A stretch of DNA of 44,406 nucleotides from Chrysochromulina tobinii. Lineage: Eukaryota. The number at the start of each line of letters is the position of its first letter. The first letter of the stretch is position 1. The notes under the pieces were generated by a model that was not told where the DNA came from, did no database searches, and saw nothing but the letters and a program-made list of their open reading frames with translations. Location of the stretch: contig JWZX01003019.1 in the NCBI GenBank assembly GCA_001275005.1, forward strand, positions 1 to 44,406, given 5' to 3'. The position numbers and the translations under genes are program-made. Shown here in pieces: positions 26,728 to 38,384 of this stretch.

Positions 26728-29700
26728 ATGGCGCTCGCCGTCAAGGTAGTCGGCGCACTCAACATCGAGGCCTCGTACGAAGCGTTCCACGTCGTCGTGC
26801 ACCTGCAGGCAGCTGATGGCCGCCACCTCGCCTCGGTGCGCACCGGCAACGCGGCCGAGGTGGCACCCGGAGCGGGTGCGATGTGGAACGAGGAGCTCGT
26901 GCTGCCCATCTCGAACGATGCCGGTTCGGAGGTCGCGAGCGTGCTCTTCGAGCTCCAGGGCGGCAGTGCCAGGGACTCAGCGGCGCACGGCATCGGCTCA
27001 GCAGCCATCGACTGGCCGACCGTGTGTACCAATGCGGTGGGCGACGGCTGGGCGACGGAGCCACCGCTGCTCGCGGCGCACGGCGTGCCCAATGGCAGCC
27101 GGCTCCTCGTGCGCCTGCTCCACGTCGACGCGGCTGCCTCGGCGGCCAAGCTCAAGCAGCTCAAGGCTCAAGTGTCCGAGGCCATCTCGGTGACGGGACG
27201 CGAGCGCCAGGCGCTGCTGTCTGCGGCGACGGAGCACACGCGGCAACTCAGCTCGACGCGCACGCAGCTCACGCTCAAGCTGCGCACCGTCTCGCAGAAG
27301 GCCACCGAGAAGGAGGTCGGAGACTTTCGCGCCGCGCTCGAGTCGCGTCTACAGGCGGCGCGTTCGGGACGCGACGCCGCCCTGGTGAACTTCAATGTGC
27401 TGCACCAGCAGGCGCTGAGGAAGGCGATGCCGCGAGTGCACGAGCGGCTCAATCGAGAGGCGCGCCAGCAGAGGGAGGCCATTGGGCGCGTGGGCGGCAA
27501 GGCGCGCGAAACGGAGGCTAAGATGAGAGCCGAGCGACGTCAGCAGTGGCAGGTGAGATGGCCTCTGAGGGCCTCTGAGGACCTCTGATGACCTCTGAGG
27601 ACCAGACCTGATGACCAGACCTCTCTTGAGTGCGCCTCGGAGTGCGCGCGCCTTGGAGCGCCGAGTACCCCTTTCCTGACGCCGCGTCCCGTCGCCGGTC
27701 GCAGGTGACAATTGTCAACGAGCGCGAACGTTCGTTACTCGCTGCCAGCCAGAAGGCAGCGCGCGCTGCGCACCGCCTGCAGGTGGCCTTCAAGCGAGCG
27801 GCAGCCCATGAGGGGTCGACCCTCGGACGTAGGCTACGTCGGATCGGGCTGGACGCCGAGGAGGCGGCCACAAAGGAATGCGCGGCGCTCCAGCCTGCAG
27901 GGGACCTGCTGGCGAAGCAGATTGGTCGAGGCCGCGCGGAGATCGACGCTGAGGCAGCGGAGGCGGTGAGTGCAGTGCGCCTCGAGGTGAATCGATTGGC
28001 CGCCGAGTGGTCGAATAGCCTGGCGGCCAGCTCGCGGGGCGCGCGCGAGGTGCAAGCGCACACGCTCCTAGAGCACCAGCAGGCCCACCGTGAGGCACGC
28101 GCCGCGCGCCGCGTCGTCGACAACTCGGCCGAGCAGACGAGGCGCGTCGCGATCTCGTCTCGCGAGAGCTCCCTCACCCAGCTCACGACCAATCTCGAGA
28201 AGGAGATTGAGGGCCTCGCTGGCTGGCTGGCGAAGCGCATCGAGGCGGCGAACGCGGCGGCGCAGGCGGCCCCCGCAGCGGGGGCCTTGTCGGCGCCGGT
28301 GGATTGGTCAGTGGCGGCGACGCGCTTCGAGGGCGAGGTGAGTGATCTGCGTGGCCGGATCGAGGCACAGCGCGTCAAGATGGGCGAGCTGCACACGCAG
28401 CTCTTCGTGGCGCGTGCCAAAGGCACGGCCACCCGCCAGGTGGCGGAGGTGATGAGGGCCGTCGAAGACCGGTGCGAGGAGATGATGGCGAGCGCCGCCG
28501 CTGTCGGAGACGATGCGGCAGGGAGCTTGCGCTGCGCGCTGGAGGGTCTGCTCGCCGAGGTTGGCCGCCAACACGACGCGTCGCTCGCGCAGACTGCCGT
28601 GGATGCGGACGCGTACGAGCGGGCGCTCGTCGCGCCGTCGGTGCGCGACGCGCCCAAGCACGAGGAGCTGCTTCGTCAGCTCGAGCACGAGCTCAGCCTG
28701 CAGACGCAGCTCTCGCTCTCCCGCCCAAACGAGTGGTTTGAACTGCTCGGGCGCAAGCTCAAACTCGACGAGCATGAGGTGGCCGAGTGGCGGGAGCGCG
28801 CCGCCGTGGGCACCGCGCGCCACACGGAAGAGCTCTCAGCGCTTGAGGCGCGAGCGGCGGAGGAGGTGGCAGCGGAGGAGGGGCTACAGGCTGCGCGTGA
28901 GGGCGCACTCATTGCAGACGCTTCCGCAGCGGTCCACCGGATGGCGCACGAGCGGCGCGAGCGCCTGCGGGAGCTTCCGATGCCCGAGCTCGCGTCCGTC
29001 ATCCGAGAGGCCGTCGAGAAGACGGCAAGGAGCGGCGAGACGATGGCGCTCGAGCGCCGGCGCGCCGCGTTTGAACGGCTCGACCTTTCCCGCCCAAAGC
29101 TGCCTGCGCCGGCGATTGTTGGCGCACGGCCCAAGGGCAGTGGCGGCGGCGCGGCGGCGCACGCGCAGGGCGAAAGCTTGGACGGCCGTCGCCACCCATC
29201 GCGCCGTACCGGTACGGCGGACGTCGCCGCAGACGAGGCCGAGGGTTTCGTCACCGGCGCCGAGTCGGAGCTTCTCTTGAGGCTCCGCGAGACTTTCCAT
29301 CAGTTGGCGGCGGAGGCGACGGCGACGCAGCCGTACGCGGCGGCCGCGAGCTCGCTGCAGCTCGACTGGGCCGAGGAGGCGGCCGAAGGGAAGCACGGGC
29401 TGCCGGCCCTCGAGACGCGCCAGCTGCGCGATCTCGAGGCGGAGCTCGCTACCAGTCTGCGCGAGACCATTCGAGAGGAGCACCTCGAGTTCGCCGCCAA
29501 GGTCAAGGCCCTCGCTGAGGAGCGCGAGGAGCTCCGCGCGGCCGCGAGCGCCGCGCCGCCGCAGTCGCCCACGAAAGCGCTCGATTCGGCGCCTCCAGTG
29601 CGCAAGGCAGAGGCGCGTGTAACTGCCGCCCGCGCGGAGCTCGCGCCTATCACAGCTTCTGAGCTCAACCGGAGCTTGGGTTCGCCCACGAGAGCGCTCG

Positions 29701-31220
29701 TCAGCGCCAATGCGCCCAAGCGGCGCGCGTTTGACGAAGCCCTCGAGGAGCAGCGTCGGGTGCGTCGGGAGGCCGTGCGCGCGCTGATCGCGGAGCGTGA
29801 GGACGGGGCAGCGGCGAGCGGCGCGCTACGCGCCACGGCGCTCGAGGCGCGCACGGACGCAGCGAGATCTGAGCTCGACAAGGGCAATCGTGAGTTCAGC
29901 GCCAAGCTCGACGAGAAGATCGCTGCGGCGCGGCTGCGGCTCGAGCCGGCGCGTAAGCGGCTCGCAGCCTCGAAGCGCTCATGTGCGGCGGAGCTGCTCG
30001 CCGGGCTGGTGGAGGAGTCTGAGGAGGCGTCCTTGGGTCTCGTCAGATACAATCTCAAGGCCAAGGAGGCCAAGGAGGCGGCGTGGGCTCGGCGGGTGGA
30101 GGCGCTCGTGAGAGCGCACGAGGCCGAGGCGGCCGAGCTCGCCGCAACCCGCGCGAGCTTGCTCGAGCATCTCTCGCACCAGAGCGGTTGGGCCGACGGC
30201 TTCGTGCCTACCCTCGTGGCCGTCGGGGCGCTGGGTGAGCCGCCAGCGCCGCCGCCGCCCTTCCCGCCATCCAAGCCCGCGCGCGAGATCACCGACGAGC
30301 TCCGAGATCTCAATCTCCCCGAGGGGATCGACGAACCCCGACTCCCGCGGTTGAGCTCCAACCCTCTGCCCACCGCCTCGGCGCGCGCGCGGGCGGCGTT
30401 TGTGAAGCGGCCGCTGCTCCTGAGCGCGCTCGCGCCGCGCTCGATCCCGGCGGCCAAACCGCGCCCGCCCGCGCCTCTCGAGCCGGTGGACGTGAACGCG
30501 GTGCTCGAGGAGCTCGGCACGGCGCTCCAACTCGACGGCAGCGACAAGGGCGGCGGCGCTCACGGCGGCGCGTGGGTGTGGGAGCGCGCGTCGCTGGAGC
30601 GCGCGCGAGCGCTGCATGCGCCGCTCTCCCGCGCGCGCGCGCCCCGTGCGCCGTCGCTCCCGCCTGAGGAGGACCTCTCGCCCGAGGCGCTCCGCGCAGC
30701 GGCTGTCAAGGCCGCGACGACGGCCGAGGGCGAGACGGAGGATGCGAAGCTCGCGCGCGAGATCGCGCAGCTCGAGCGGCACGTGGAGCAGCGTGCGGCC
30801 CAGAAGCGTGCCCTCGAGGCCCAGGCGGCGGAGCGCGTCAAGGCTCAGCGGTTCGCGCAGCTCGCGGCGGCGCGTGAGCGTGCGGAGGCGGAGCTCACAC
30901 AGGCCCAGCAGGCTTTCGAGCGCGAGGAGTACAGCATGCAGGAGCTGACGGCCCAGGCCAAAGCGATGGCGGTCGCGCGGATACAGGACCGAATGCGCGC
31001 CGAGGCGGCCGCCAATGGCGGCGTGGCCGCGCGCATCTGGTCCGAGGCGCTGTTGCGTCGTCAGTCCGAGGAGGCGAGGAGCCACGGGCGACGGCTCCGG
31101 CACGAGGCCCACGCGGCGGCGAGCAGCACGCTCGGCGAGCGCGGCGAGGCGTCCAAGGAGCAGCTCGCGAGTATGCGCGAGCTCATGGCCACGCTGAGCG
31201 CCATCGCCGAGGAGCACTAG
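26728..31220 (+). CDS. Large coiled-coil protein with a possible N-terminal C2-like domain; exons 26728-27552 and 27705-31220
   Basis: Phase-0 intron 27553-27704 (cag|GTGAG...GCAG|) joins the two long ORFs. The N-terminus has LAVKVVGA...WNEELVLP, a C2-like pattern. Confidence 0.7.
27553..27704 (+). other. Intron with GCCTCTGAGG/ACCTCTGATG decamer repeats
   Basis: GT-AG boundaries and tandem ~10-bp units at 27561-27620. Confidence 0.8.
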
Positions 31221-32200: not shown

Positions 32201-32405
32201 GAGCCGACTCCTGTCGTGAAGAACGAAACCGTCTTCCACGCCGCCGGCGACCCGAACTCAAGACGTTGTGTGTGCACTTCGAATGGCTATTCGACTTCAG
32301 TCTACCTGCAATGTAACTTTCTGTCAAACTTGCGGATTGGTCGGGCGAGTCGGCACGGCACCTCGACAGTCTACACGTGCACGCGTGGCACAAACGCGTT
32401 TTGCC

Positions 32406-34360
32406 ATGGCGCGTGAGCTTCTACAAGTCCGTGCCTCTGATGGCGTAACTATCGACCATCAATCCTCGAGCGTGCCGCTGTTGCAACTTCGTGAGCCCGT
32501 GACGCTGGCGTGCGGGCACAATTTTGAGCTGGCGCTCTTGAAGGCACACTTTAGGGCGGGCGCCCACCAATGTCCGGGCTGCGGCGCGCTCGTAGGCATC
32601 GAGGCGGACGAGCTCAGGATCAACGCCGAAGTCCTGCATTTGATCCTGAAGCTGCGGCCGCCGCCGCCGCCTCCACCGGTACCGGGGGCGCAGCCATTGC
32701 AGGTGGTGGCGGGGGACTTGGCTGCGGGCACGGAGAGCCCGTCGCGCGCGGACGCTGCGGCTGCGGCAGTTCTCGCCGGTGTTGCAATGTCGACCGTCGC
32801 CGCTGTCGACCGCAGCTCCAACCTTCGCAGCAGCTTCGGAACCGGCGCTGCCGGCGCCACCTGTGCGCCCTCTCTGCCTCTGGTCGTCAGGGTCGACTCG
32901 GGCAGTAACAAGGGCATGTCGCCGCTTGCGTCGCGCGTGCGTACCGGCCTCCCAACTTCGTACCCCTTTTGCCGCGACTCGGCCCAGGTGGAGGCCGTGA
33001 CGGCGACGTACTTCGCGCGGCAGCTCACGGCGGTCATCGCCCGTAGTCATCAGGGCGAGGCGCTCAGCGAGCTGCCGATCTCGCTGACGAAACGCGTGAT
33101 GAAGCAGGATGCGGTCAACATGCATTTGCGTATGGTGAGCGCCGAGGCCGTCGACTTGATGGCCTGCGGCAACGAGCTCTTCATAGGGCTGGTCACCGAA
33201 CTGGCATGGCATGTGTCCACGTTGCCGGGCAAGCGCGTGACCGTCGACTTACGCGACCTGCAGGTGGGCTGAGTGCCCCAGAGTGCTTCTGAGCGCCCCT
33301 GAGTGCTTCTCTGAGTGCCCCTGAGTGCTTCTGAGTGCCCCTGAGTGCCTCTGAGTGCCCCTGAGTGCTTCCGAGCGCCTCTGAGTGCCTCTCTGAGTGC
33401 CTCTCTGAGTGCCTCCCATGGTTGCCTCTCGCGAGCTTCAGAATGCGGTCAGCTCGACGAGCAAGCTCGACTTTTTGTACGAATTCTCCCTCCAGAGCGA
33501 CCTGCGCGCCGCCGAGTCGCCAGACGGTGGGAGGAGCGTCGAGGAGCAGTTGCGAGCGTTCGACACGCATCGCGAACGCTCGCCAGCTGCCTCGCATCCG
33601 CGCGCGACGCGAGGAGAAGGCCCACGCGCTTGCCAGTGGCAAACTTTCCGGCCGCTCGCATGCATCTCGTCGGCTGCATGCAATGAAACGGCAGCGTGGG
33701 CTTGGGGGGCGCTTCCTCGGGCGTGCTGAGGAAGATGCCGTCCAGATGCTCGTTGGGCAGGGGAGCGATGATGGATCGCTGTCCGCCCTCCGGCGTCTTG
33801 ACAGCGCTGCAAGCTGCGCGAGTGACGCATCGGCCGCAACGTTGGGCAACGGTGCTCAAGATGGTTCGTTCACATGCAAGATGGGGGCGCCGTTGCCGGG
33901 GGCGACATTGCTGGCCGCCGCCGCCGCTGCCACCTGGACGGTCGCGCCCGGCATGGCGCCCGGCTCACCAATGACCCTCGGCGTGCCACGCGCCGAGTTG
34001 AGCTCGTCGGTACCGGTGCATGCTCAGGCCGTCTCCTCGCTCAAGCGCGACCATGCGCATCTCTGCCCGACTTGGGAGGGCCGAGAGGGCGCTCGGGACG
34101 GCGCTCGGGGCGGCGCTCGGGACTGCGCTCGGGACGGCGCTCGCCCGACTTGGGAGGGCCGAGAGGGGGAAGGCTCAGGGGCTAGCATGCCTCTGGCTAG
34201 CGTGCCTCTGGCTGGTGTTGTGCGCAGCCGTCTGCGTGAGAGCGTGCTGAGCGTCCCGGCGCACGACGACGCTGCTCACGACGACGCTGCGCACGAAGTT
34301 CTGACGATCCTCTCCCGTGTGTCGAGTGATCCCGGGCCGTCGACGAGCTACGCAACGGCG

Positions 34361-34396
<36 letters not shown>

Positions 34397-35167
34397 GCGG
34401 CGGCAGTGGTGGCGAAGGCAAGCGCACCAAGGCAAGCGCATGGCGGACCCCGTTTTGAGAGAACAGGCTGCTCGTGGCAATCCCTCGGCGCCGAAAGGGC
34501 GGCTGGGTCCACTGTGGGCGCGCTCGGCGTGCTCGCGGCGGGCGCATTGTATGAGCAACAGCAGCAGCAGCAGCAGCAGCACCGCCATCAGCAGCATCAG
34601 CAGCATCAGCAGCACCAGCAGCACCAGCAGCACCAGCAGCACCAGCAGCACCAGCAGCACCAGCAGCACCAGCAGCACCAGCAGCACCAGCAGCACCAGC
34701 AGCACCAGCAGCACCAGCTCAGCGGCGGCGGCGGCAGCCCGGCTTCTCAGGTCGACCGTGAGCGATCTGTATTCCCACTCGCGAATGTGACACGTGTCAT
34801 GGGTCAGAATCTGCCCGCGGGCACGAAGATCTCCAAGGAGGCCAAGGAGGCCATGTGCGAGATGGCCGTTGAGCTCACGGCCTTTGTCTCGATGGAAGCA
34901 GCCATGCTCGCCGCGCACGAGTCCTCGCGCTCGATCTCGGCCGAGTGCCTCCTCGATGCCTTCAAGAGGCTCGACCTCGGGAGCTTCGCGCCGCCGCTCC
35001 AGATGTGGTTGGTAGGGCGCGCCGTGAAGGCTGAGCCCCAGATGATGCCTGATGCGGCAGCCAACTACACGGCGTCCGCTGTGGCCGATCTGCTCTTTAC
35101 CGAAGTGGAGGATGACGTGAATCAGAACGTCTATCATGACGCGGCCCCTGCCAGGGCCATGGGCTGA
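32406..35167 (+). CDS. Putative single-gene NF-Y: RING/U-box-like + NF-YC histone fold + NF-YA motif + poly-Q/H + NF-YB histone fold (intron 33264-33441; frame discontinuity at ~33490-33565)
   Basis: RING/U-box-like: EPVTLACGHNFE...CPGC. NF-YC: ELPISLTKRVMKQD...SAEA...ELFI..VTELAW....KRVTV...DLQ|NAVSSTSKLDFLYEF. NF-YA: NARQLPRIRARR...HASRRLHAMKRQRGLGGRF. NF-YB: FPLANVTRVM..LP..TKISKEAKE...E...FVSMEA...ISAECLLDAFKRL. Confidence 0.8.
33264..33441 (+). other. Intron filled with (TGAGTGCCTC/TGAGTGCCCC)n decamer repeats
   Basis: cag|GTGGG donor and TTCAG| acceptor; splicing restores the end of the NF-YC fold. Confidence 0.85.
34556..34717 (+). repeat. (CAGCAGCAC)n coding repeat encoding poly-Q/(QQH)n
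   Basis: Tandem repeat seen directly, in frame just upstream of the NF-YB-like domain. Confidence 0.95.
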
Positions 35168-35600
35168 GGTCGCCGGAGGAACGCGCCTCAACCAATGCAC
35201 GAGGGGAGGCACAGGTCAGGCGAGAGGTAATGCGCCCTCCTCTGAGCATGAACGTTTCTCGAGGGTGCCGATGGGGGGGGGGGGCGCGACTGCCGCACCA
35301 CGGAACGTAACGCGCAGGGGAGTGCCGTATCATATGTATACGTGTTCGGACGCCCACGCCAGACGCGCGCGGCACCACCGGAGTGTTGACGAGACCACAG
35401 CACCGCGCACGACAGTGGCGCGGTAACCGCGGTGCGGCGTGCAGTGTGGCCCGCGGCCGTCACCGGACACCGCCCGCCGGGCGATCGCACCAAACCCATT
35501 GCGTTACCGTCGCTTATTATTGCGATGTAGAGCCGACCGGCGCGCCCCGGTGTACCGCACGCGCGGTGTCGGGGTATGCCAAAAGAGTCAGACGCTCCAA

Positions 35601-35626
35601 CCCTAACTCTAACCCTATCCCTAACC
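35601..35626. repeat. Short degenerate interstitial telomere-like (CCCTAA)n tract
   Basis: ccctaa ctctaa ccctat ccctaa cc. Confidence 0.7.
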
Positions 35627-36406
35627 ATAAAGGCGTACAATAAGAGCAACAGAAACAGCCAAAGCCATCGCACGTAGACCGGGCGCAGCTCTCACCGTCA
35701 GGCTTCGGGAGGATGTTGGAGCCAGACCAGACGTCATGGTACCCCACGCCCTTCTGATCGCCTCGTTCGTAGTATTGTACGCCTTATCGAGGGCGTCTTT
35801 CGATGTCTCGATCGACTCGTCCGCGGCCTTGCGAATCTGCTCGAGAGCGCGGCCGTCCCTTTCAGCGCGTTCGATCTGTTCGAAAACGGCACTCGTCATG
35901 TTGGCAATGTCTTCTGCGGCTCTGGTCGAGGACCTTTTTATATCCTCCAGCTTGCTGCAGAAGGCCCCGGACGCGACCGCGAGGGTGCCAGCGAGCGGAA
36001 GCCCCTGCTTGAGGATGCTGAGGAGCTGCCCACGGGCTCCAAGGCTTTGGAGTGTCGCGAAGAGAGATTCCTTCTCAACATTGGGAAAGGTCGCTTGCCA
36101 GGCGGCTGCAGCGCTCTCAGCTTCGACGCCACCCTCGGCGAACCCGAAAGCGGGAATGATGGCAGCAACGGCAGCGAGCAGTGCGGTACCACTGAGCGCC
36201 ACGCCTGCCATTTCATACAGGCACACTGGTGGAACGGTGAAATTGAAATCGAGTTCCATCATCATGAGTTCATCCTCGAGTTCCGTCTGGCTTGATTTGA
36301 TGCAGGCATACACGACGGCCGATGCGCATGCGATGCCCAGGAGCGTGACCCACAGTGCCGATGGTTGATTCCTCGTTGGCCGAGCGAGAAGAGGTTCCGA
36401 TAACAT
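35621..36406 (-). CDS. Membrane protein with an Ifi-6-16/ISG12-like motif
   Basis: AFGFAEGGVEAESAAAAWQA..PNVEKESLFATLQSLGA matches the GF...G(I/V).A.S.AA...(GS)L.A.LQS.GA pattern. Hydrophobic segments occur near both termini. Confidence 0.65.
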   Translation of the reverse strand: MLSEPLLARPTRNQPSALWVTLLGIACASAVVYACIKSSQTELEDELMMMELDFNFTVPPVCLYEMAGVALSGTALLAAVAAIIPAFGFAEGGVEAESAAAAWQATFPNVEKESLFATLQSLGARGQLLSILKQGLPLAGTLAVASGAFCSKLEDIKRSSTRAAEDIANMTSAVFEQIERAERDGRALEQIRKAADESIETSKDALDKAYNTTNEAIRRAWGTMTSGLAPTSSRSLTVRAAPGLRAMALAVSVALIVRLYG

Positions 36407-36802
36407 CAAAGGACGTGCCCGCTCCACACACGCACCCTGGAGGGGAACATCATGATGTTTCGCCCGACGGCAAGGCAAGTCTGCAAGGCAAGTCAAGTCA
36501 AGTCAATGACCACCACTTTGTGAAACTGCGGAAACCATTTACTAGCAGGCTTTTGCCGGGTCTACGACTAGTACATAAGTACGATGTAACGGTACGCAGA
36601 CCGGTACGATACTCTAGGCGTCCTAGGGGGGTTCCGGCGGGTTCGGGGTTCCAATCGCGCCAAACGCGGAAACGCGAACCGCCCCCGCGCCCCGGTGCAT
36701 ACGGCCCCTGGGGTCAACGCCGACCGATGGCGTCGCCCGCCCCTCGTTAGGTACGGTTCAAGGTACGGTCCGGTGAGACAAAAGACAAAGACTTTTCTAC
36801 GA

Positions 36803-37473
36803 CTACGATGCAGTGCCTGGGTCGAATACAGACCGAACCGTGACCGTCTCCTCCTCGTCGTCATCGTCACCCATGGTGGCGGCGGCAGTGGTGGCTCGCT
36901 TCTTGCGCTTCTTTTTACGATCCGAGCGGCTCGGCTCCGCCGCTGCATCCGCACGCTCCGCCGCCTTCTCCACCTCTGCCTCTGCCTCTGCCTCCGCTGG
37001 CTCCGCTGCCTCCGCACCATTCTGCGCCGCCGGCACTAATGGCACTGATGCCTCTGCCACTGCCTCCGCACCATCCGTCGCCGCCGGCACTGATGGCGGC
37101 GGCGGCGCTGATGGCGGCGGCGCTGACGGCGGCGGCGGCACACCGAGAGGCACGAGTGTCAGGGGAGGAAGGGCCATGGCGCCGAGGGTACGGCGCGCCT
37201 TGCGCCCAGTGCGCCGGAGTGTCTCCGCTGCCGCCGCGAGCCGCGCCGCGTGCTGTGCCAGCACCTCCTCGAGCGCAATCAAGCGCTCAGGGACAAGCGC
37301 CGCCGCGTGGCGGATGGCTTCGAGGAGGCGCGCAGGGGCGACCGGCAGGCCGCCTGGCTTGTGGAGCGCGCAGAGCTCCTGATGCTGGTTGAGCACCACC
37401 GTCAGCCTTCCCTCGAGCACCAGCTCCTCGCGATCGGACGGATCCACTACGGATAGCATCTCCGCCGACGCGC

Positions 37474-37504
<31 letters not shown>

Positions 37505-38152
37505 GCCACCGCCGCTGCCGCCGCCGCTTCCGCCGCGGAAGAAGCCGAGGCTGACTGCAACAGGCGTGTGGTGGAAGACGAGCGGCGTCGGCTCGCCTTG
37601 ATCCATCGAGAGCACCGATGCACTCGCCTCGTCACCCACGCCGCTCACCGACACGGGTGGCAGGCGCAGGTGGCGCAGTGCCACGAGCGCCGCAAAGGTG
37701 GCGGCGTCTGTCAGGTTGCCGCGGTCGTCGATCACAGTCACATCGGTGCGCACCGACCATACGTGCTTGCTCGCGACGACGCACAGCGACTCAACGTCGA
37801 TTGCCTGGCTCATGCGCAGCGCGCGGTCGAGGAGCCTCGACATCTCGACTGCTGCCTCGGGCGGCCGCCCTGCCTCGAAGGCGGGTGAGGCCATCGGCGA
37901 GAACTCGACGAAGAACTGAAGCACGCCTTCAGCCGGCCGGTCGGGATACGGCTCCACCAACTCAGCAGTCGCGACAGCAAGCACCTGCGTTGCACCCAAC
38001 TTCACCTGCACACTTCCTGCCACGGAACCGAGCGCCACCAGAAGAGGGCGCGCCTCGAGCGGCCGCCGGCCGTCGACACGCAAGCCGGAGGCGAGCGCGT
38101 TCGTGATGAATCGGGACTCTGAGGTCGATATGAGCGGCGGCGCGTGCTGCAT
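36803..38152 (-). CDS. RRP45: Exosome complex component RRP45 (EXOSC9), RNase PH family
   Basis: GLRVDGR, VKLGATQV, PYPDRPAEG, EFSPMASPAFE, AIDVESLCV...VWSVRTDV..IDDRGN and LHKPGG; extended C-terminal tail. Confidence 0.9.
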
Positions 38153-38384
38153 TTGTTCCGCTCGTGGCAAAAAAGGCGACGTCGCCACACCCTGCAACGC
38201 TTTTTTGGAAAGTAACCTGGTAGGGCCTCAGGTGCCACATGCAGACGTCCCACGCGAAATGCCAAAAGTGTGTCGCGTTACGCCCACAAAGGCGCGTCGT
38301 CGACCGCCTGAATTGTAAGGGCGGATCGCGAACCGCCCCTTGACGCTTGAGCGCTACGCGTTTCGAGGCGAGCCGGGCTCGACG

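Follow-up and report, generated by a model that had tools for sequence, protein, structure and literature searches.

We analysed a DNA stretch of 44,406 nucleotides (nt) from Chrysochromulina tobinii (contig JWZX01003019.1; hereafter the window), in which one gene on the forward strand (32406-35167) encodes the conserved cores of all three subunits of the CCAAT-binding factor NF-Y. Its product is a chain of 860 amino acids (aa) with the order RING/U-box-like domain, NF-YC, NF-YA and NF-YB, and this four-domain fusion is real, expressed and conserved. To our knowledge, NF-Y has been described in all eukaryotes as a trimer of three gene products. It is regulated by subunit supply and, in plants, also by subunit mixing. 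The chain stands outside NF-Y in this three-gene sense, being one gene and one frame, not three separately encoded subunits.

Structure and expression of the gene

Two long open reading frames (ORFs) lie on the forward strand of the region, at 32220-33272 and 33365-35167. The locus is one spliced two-exon gene, and the evidence for the YC-YA-YB fusion comes from reads, three independent assemblies and eight intact relatives. Exon 1 (32406-33263; aa 1-286) encodes the RING/U-box-like domain, a low-complexity linker and most of the NF-YC fold, and is covered by RNA contigs at 32394-32713 and 32735-33260. It is followed by a GT..AG intron of 178 nt (33264-33441) that is filled with a 10-nt repeat. 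Exon 2 (33442-35167) encodes the end of NF-YC, NF-YA, a long linker, NF-YB, an acidic tail and the stop; it is stop-free in three metagenome loci (L001-L003) and in the read-corrected window, and is represented by the P0001 cluster. The probable 3' untranslated region (35168-35468) lies in an RNA contig of run X13 (34863-35468), although such contigs give neither strand nor end.

Among 17 public runs that contain this stretch, eight (two DNA and six RNA) were compared, all as contigs, and the RNA runs are shallow. The splice of 33264-33441 was seen in two of the six RNA runs (X12 and X13, from two studies), and the other four have no contig across it. In X13, a 1008-nt RNA contig joins 32973-33260 to 33439-34138, reaching from NF-YC through NF-YA, and therefore NF-YC and NF-YA lie on one spliced RNA, in frame.

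Spliced as assembled, the window stops at aa 382, and the initial annotation had linked NF-YC to the rest by a 1-nt shift (about 860 aa) or by an alternative acceptor (about 833 aa). However, base 33571 is left out in all five runs that span it (X1, 71.3 of 71.3; X13, 14.4 of 14.4; X9, X16 and X17), the X12 contig starting just after it and X14 and X15 having no cover there, and it is also left out in three of three independent assemblies (loci L001-L003). The apparent shift is therefore an assembly error caused by one surplus base, and without this base the frame gives 860 aa with one terminal stop, so the proposed length stands and the shift does not. A programmed or genuine frameshift is ruled out by the absence of the base from the reads, and the alternative acceptor by the lack of its joint in the six shallow RNA runs. 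A 19-nt mini-intron ahead of 33496, conceivable from the sequence, was also rejected, as RNA contigs read through it unspliced. The earlier placement of NF-YA and NF-YB in one stop-free frame of the window is confirmed by the ORF listing.

Between NF-YA and NF-YB, no contig of the eight runs, DNA or RNA, bridges the repeats at 34348-34722, and thus no full-length transcript was seen. The contig tool skips repeats and the DNA runs break likewise, and these holes were not taken as evidence. RNA contigs at NF-YB start with 34 letters before 34723 and the DNA contig does the same, so that nothing points to a splice acceptor immediately before NF-YB.

Public gene models show little of this structure. 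P0036, the model for this contig, is a fragment of 161 aa from NF-YC, and that of Chrysochromulina parva (P0028; 288 aa) is exon 1 alone, with 282 of 288 residues the same as in exon 1 translated up to the first stop. Both named models are fragmentary, therefore the fusion is hidden in both annotations. Such fragments, together with the stop at aa 382 and the lack of a single RNA contig over the whole gene, could suggest an artefact, namely neighbouring but distinct genes, a pseudogene or a misassembly. However, the surplus base is absent from all spanning reads and assemblies, a spliced RNA joins NF-YC to NF-YA, and the full frame is kept in three assemblies and eight distant relatives, so that we regard an artefact as effectively refuted.

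Some smaller differences were also recorded. The G at 33166 is read as A in X1, X9, X12, X13 and X16 (Cys254 to Tyr), and a run at 35272 has an extra G in X1, X9 and X17; both are likely errors or alleles of the window. Within the intron, 33269-33413 is a degenerate 10-nt tandem repeat with a summed DNA contig depth of about 300 times the single-copy level, which marks the 10-nt unit as a genome-wide intron repeat.

Domain identity and conservation

The NF-YC-type histone fold (32991-33483; aa 196-300) is split by the intron, with its alpha-C helix ('LDFL') in exon 2. The NF-YA core (33568-33718; aa 329-378) comprises A1, a linker, A2 and GxGGRF, and is followed by a low-complexity YA-YB linker of about 340 aa (33719-34762). 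This linker contains poly-Ala, repeats of 12 and 15 nt and, at 34556-34717, a Gln/His tract. The NF-YB-type histone fold (34763-35017; aa 727-811) comes last. These three domains, which the initial annotation had placed here on the forward strand, are borne out by Pfam and PDB sequence searches. The profile matches foreseen with them were obtained as well: the ORF 33365-35167 matches CBFB_NFYA (PF02045) at 33.9 bits (cut-off 27) and CBFD_NFYB_HMF at 35.7 bits (cut-off 21.4), and exon 1 matches CBFD_NFYB_HMF at 21.3 bits against the cut-off of 21.4, the last helix of that fold being in exon 2. This alpha-C helix is restored by the splice observed in RNA.

Against PDB sequences, the C-terminal fold matches NF-YB best (E 2.5e-12 to 3e-10), followed by CHRAC-14 (7e-7), NC2-beta (9e-3) and Dpb4 (0.44). 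The N-terminal fold matches NF-YC/HapE best (3e-7 in the relative P0002), with a Dpb3-like protein at 8e-3, and the middle segment matches NF-YA/HapB. These scores rule out an NC2, POLE3-4 or CHRAC identity of the histone folds. The window protein gave no Pfam match to a CCT (CONSTANS-type) domain even at E values as high as 1.

The fourth domain, which was absent from the initial annotation, is the RING/U-box-like domain at 32484-32663 (aa 27-86). Pfam RING/U-box matches in the window protein are below cut-off, with a weak signal at aa 27-59. C-x-H and C-x2-C, which correspond to one zinc site in a RING cross-brace, are conserved in 10 of 10 sequences, and the other four cysteines or ligands are absent, so none of the ten has the eight-ligand cross-brace. 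In a predicted model of P0002, residues 30-100 match U-box and RING domains equally (Z 7-8.3; root mean square deviation (rmsd) 2-2.7 Å over about 65 residues), and Pfam U-box and zf-Nse matches are weak (E 0.05-0.1). The Atlas feature match of this domain is RING (0.92), and the whole protein has no match in the ESM Atlas. Self-ubiquitination at the lysine matching human NF-YB K138 is unsupported: Gly is found there in the window protein, and Lys in two of nine fused domains.

Three of four metagenome loci are this gene (L001-L003; 95.9, 95.8 and 99.2% identity), and the remaining one (L004) is an unrelated RING gene. In the three loci a single stop-free frame runs from the NF-YC tail to NF-YB, and the same splice sites give introns of 132, 128 and 178 nt and products of 844, 839 and 869 aa, in each of which the four domains are all present. 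Their length differences are whole codons confined to the linker and the tail, and the frame is never broken. NF-YA and NF-YB have no non-synonymous changes, with 3, 3 and 0 synonymous changes in NF-YB, which are small numbers.

More distant relatives were found via three word-indexed searches, a profile search of 1.84 billion representatives and three cluster look-ups. At least eight intact single-ORF fusions exist, in line with the orthologues of the same order that had been anticipated: seven (P0002, P0011, P0012, P0047, P0048, P0049 and P0198) have the RING-like domain, YC, YA and YB, and P0196 has YC, YA and YB without the RING-like domain. Among the best 150 profile matches, five have all four domains, three have two or three in the same order, and the rest are single or tandem YB/YC domains or fragments; no other domain order occurs among these 150. 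We infer that these relatives are haptophytes. The three NF-Y domains share 42-75% pairwise identity within the family, and only one of the eight intact relatives is above the Pfam NF-YA cut-off. The YC-YA linker is short (11-18 aa in the eight relatives, 29 in the window protein) and the YA-YB linker varies from 34-136 aa in the relatives to about 340 in the window protein, so that long flexible linkers, once put forward as the enabling feature, do not hold up in that role. Outcomes named in advance as unfavourable (truncated transcripts or separate starts, NC2/POLE3-4 folds with no NF-YA match, no expression and no orthologue) were not encountered.

In a quick tree of 65 rows, which holds only 2-3 ordinary NF-YC rows, the fused YC domains group together on a branch of their own (support 91), next to some 50 free NF-YC-like paralogues. 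The fused YB domains and five fragments also form one branch (support 98; FastTree, 91 rows, with a long-branch warning). Both trees are consistent with a single origin of the fusion. The free NF-YC-like proteins, about 50 clusters among P0053-P0166, have in common an insertion after helix 1, and there are 11 divergent free NF-YB-like proteins without the loop-2 motif of NF-YB. The two groups may be a histone-fold pair specific to this lineage that gave rise to the fusion.

Further features are found in parts of the family. P0011 (aa 41-129) and P0196 (aa 146-239) have a common extra N-terminal domain (32% identity, E 1e-7) with weak chromo/Tudor-like Pfam matches (E 0.12-0.17), which may be a chromatin-reader module beside or replacing the RING-like domain. 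At aa 501-518 of P0196, the NF-YA reading motif aligns with a gap of one residue and matches CCT weakly (E 0.079), which suggests a drift towards a CONSTANS-like motif. The sub-branch of P0012, P0048, P0049 and P0075 has a long acidic C-terminal tail that ends in a basic, nuclear-signal-like stretch.

The gene has several neighbours in the window. An Ala/Glu/Arg-rich ORF of 1196 aa without a Pfam match lies upstream on the forward strand (27630-31220). Downstream, a short degenerate telomere-like CCCTAA run (35598-35628) is followed by a convergent neighbour on the reverse strand (35621-36502; Ifi-6-16 family, 28.2 bits against a cut-off of 29.1), whose RNA cover is continuous to the fusion gene, and by a reverse-strand gene of the RNase PH family, exosome core type (36803-38227; Pfam RNase_PH 93.8 bits, RNase_PH_C).

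Predicted structure and mode of action

The relative P0002 was modelled by AlphaFold2 with 54 sequences, after 20 ordinary NF-YB rows misplaced on the YC region had been excluded. The predicted local distance difference test score (pLDDT) is 96-97 for the N-terminal domain, 75-97 for YC, 87-88 for A1 and 93-96 for YB, and the predicted template modelling score is 0.52. The linkers are disordered, the equivalent of the YA-YB linker having a pLDDT under 50; a single-sequence AlphaFold run of P0002 reached pLDDT 40 and was of no use. The NF-YB fold superposes on solved NF-YB at about 1 Å. Taken as a single unit, residues 253-621 can be overlaid on single-chain H2A-H2B and on tandem histones, at Z 14-15 and with an rmsd of 2.5-3.7 Å over 150-175 residues, and therefore the model pairs both histone folds inside the chain. 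A histone-fold handshake between YC and YB within one chain is thus predicted. The chain of an NF-YC-CONSTANS chimera is not listed among the structural matches of the P0002 model.

On these grounds we consider it reasonably probable that the gene encodes a self-assembling single-chain NF-Y, a self-contained unit that needs no separate partners to bind CCAAT-type DNA. YC and YB would pair in cis by the predicted handshake, and the A1 helix, which its tether holds a few turns after the alpha-C helix of YC, would dock on the pair, so that A2 and GxGGRF could read the minor groove at CCAAT. Tethering would fix a 1:1:1 stoichiometry, shield this NF-YA against mixing with histone-fold paralogues that are free, and let the chain dispense with some interface and backbone-contact residues. 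With less support, the N-terminal domain may recruit an E2 enzyme and so couple ubiquitin-type modification either to the promoter that is bound or to turnover of the protein itself. Of the self-assembling CCAAT factor proposed in the initial annotation, the single-gene fusion is established by reads, assemblies and relatives, the intrachain pair is upheld by a predicted model, and CCAAT binding is argued from residues.

Seven DNA-reading residues of NF-YA are given in PMC12101057 (R274, H277, R281, R283, G286, G287 and F289). The window protein and P0002 keep all seven, the relatives keep 5-7, and R274, R281, R283, G287 and F289 are constant in 10 of 10 family members (P0196 with one gap; its ungapped count is 2 of 7). 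Of ten A1 trimer residues from the same text, six are identical, K241 and R253 are conservatively replaced, and V238 is Ala. The histone folds contact the DNA backbone via basic residues of L1, L2 and alpha-1 (PMC11802806); in the fused copies the YB loop-1 basic motif is kept in 7 of 9 and the YC loop-2 R..D in 9 of 9. CCAAT binding by the window protein is likely, and the fusion protein likely works like NF-Y.

Several points weigh against a self-assembling CCAAT factor. In the reading motif, G286 is kept in only 3 of 10 family members (R or H in 7) and H277 in 7 of 10 (V in 3), and the A1-A2 linker is four residues short (distance 28, against 32 in human). The NF-YB loop-2 R..D motif is found in 0 of 9 fused domains versus 63 of 65 ordinary NF-YB (and in 0 of 11 divergent free NF-YB-like proteins), and the NF-YC helix-1 arginine in 0 of 9 fused versus 55 of 55 free NF-YC domains. 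Met stands at S97 in 9 of 9 fused NF-YB domains (numbered by the alignment offset to solved NF-YB), a residue with a role in NF-YA binding. The structure is a model of P0002 and not of the window protein, A2 of P0002 reaches a pLDDT of 57-67 only, AlphaFold favours such textbook fold pairs by likeness to solved structures, and the docking of A1 on the histone pair is an inferred step. The RING-like domain is under every Pfam cut-off with half of its zinc ligands gone, and the RNA cover has the unbridged part described above.

Some of these changes would also fit a self-assembling but specialised NF-Y derivative, which recognises a changed motif or binds weakly and acts as a chromatin-docked scaffold for the ligase-like domain or as a sink. 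The basic residues of NF-YB loop 2 and NF-YC helix 1 are lost in all fused copies, G286 and H277 are replaced in the numbers given above, one member has the motif gap with its weak CCT match, and the RING-like domain is kept in seven of eight intact relatives; moreover, single substitutions in this motif abolish binding (PMC12101057). However, the five constant reading residues are kept despite diverged flanks, the window protein has the full set of seven, the other L1-L2 site is largely intact, and the intact relative P0196 has no RING-like domain. We judge this explanation rather unlikely, while giving it serious weight.

Alternatively, the one polypeptide could work in trans, by domain swap, by pairing with free NF-YB/NF-YC paralogues, or by linker cleavage into subunits. 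The length and disorder of the YA-YB linker would allow this, and the free NF-YC-like clusters and divergent NF-YB-like proteins could supply partners. However, the YC-YA linker is short and conserved in length and the fused YB and YC domains all have changes in common, both of which suit a private pair, the P0002 model pairs the folds in cis, and the alignment has no conserved linker motif resembling a cleavage site. Action in trans or by cleavage is therefore improbable, and the self-assembling single chain remains the reading that we favour.

A conserved natural single-chain form would mean that the three-gene-product organisation of NF-Y is dispensable. With linkers down to about 11 and 34 residues, the YC-YA-YB order offers a ready one-gene CCAAT-factor topology for structural work and synthetic biology. 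As each chain has fixed partners, the H277 and G286 changes could be mapped straight onto DNA preference, and the RING/U-box-like domain provides a testable link between a CCAAT factor and ubiquitin. A bolder proposal, which is speculative and doubtful at present, is that an algal lineage has converted the NF-Y trimer into a family of single-chain self-assembling histone-fold factors with their own ubiquitin-ligase module, in which release from subunit mixing allowed the base-reading residues to diversify for new motifs. If true, this would be a one-gene 'find, bend, mark' device, and the family would serve as a natural library with which to work out the NF-Y specificity code.

Comparison with known systems

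No report of a natural NF-Y fusion was found in full-text literature searches (most subscription papers and supplements being outside their scope), in agreement with the initial annotation, to which no described natural YC-YA-YB fusion was known. Separate NF-YA, NF-YB and NF-YC were counted in three haptophytes, with no NF-YA in Tisochrysis lutea, in PMC4827209, whose accessible text (supplements outside scope) mentions no such fusion. The accessible parts of PMC6843132 and of bioRxiv 10.1101/2021.11.30.470311 likewise hold nothing on it. Gene models here are fragments and seven of eight relatives fall below the Pfam NF-YA cut-off, therefore algal NF-YA absences such as that in T. lutea, as given in PMC4827209, merit a re-check.

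The N-terminal domain, as modelled in P0002, resembles in fold the U-box/RING E3 domains (plant PUB13 and CIE1, CHIP, TRIM25; Z 7-8.3) and the one-zinc SP-RING of Nse2/Mms21 (Z 5.9). In contrast to these, the fusion keeps the ligands of one zinc site only, has sub-cut-off Pfam matches, and its ligase activity is putative. Plasmodium ORP1/ORP2 likewise have divergent NF-YB/NF-YC-like folds in a protist, but they are two separate proteins in the solved dimer (9RIF) and have no NF-YA part. In tandem histone folds (Methanopyrus 1F1E, Marseillevirus doublets 7N8N, the SOS histone domain 1Q9C and SAGA subunits; Z 12-14), which are the closest whole-body matches by structure, two folds are paired within one chain, as modelled here. 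However, identity is 10-20%, none of them covers an NF-YA-type reader, and sequence puts the folds of the fusion with NF-YB and NF-YC.

The NF-Y/CBF/HAP2-3-5/Aspergillus CBC heterotrimer (PDB 4AWL, 4G92, 6R2V) has all three conserved cores in common with the fusion. The fusion differs in being one gene and one chain with an extra RING/U-box-like domain, in lacking the NF-YB loop-2 motif and the NF-YC helix-1 arginine, and in its A1-A2 linker, which is shorter by four residues. A tethered A1/A2-type reader after NF-YC is found, as here, in NF-CO/CCT complexes and in the NF-YC-CONSTANS chimeras that were engineered and crystallised on DNA (PDB 7CVO, 7CVQ), and some fusion relatives have a CCT-like end of the reading motif. 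Those chimeras are two-part laboratory constructs, whereas the present chain is natural, has three parts, and its reader scores as NF-YA and not as CCT. Since the chimeras have the same YC-first order and exist as DNA complexes, the geometry of the fusion is plausible.

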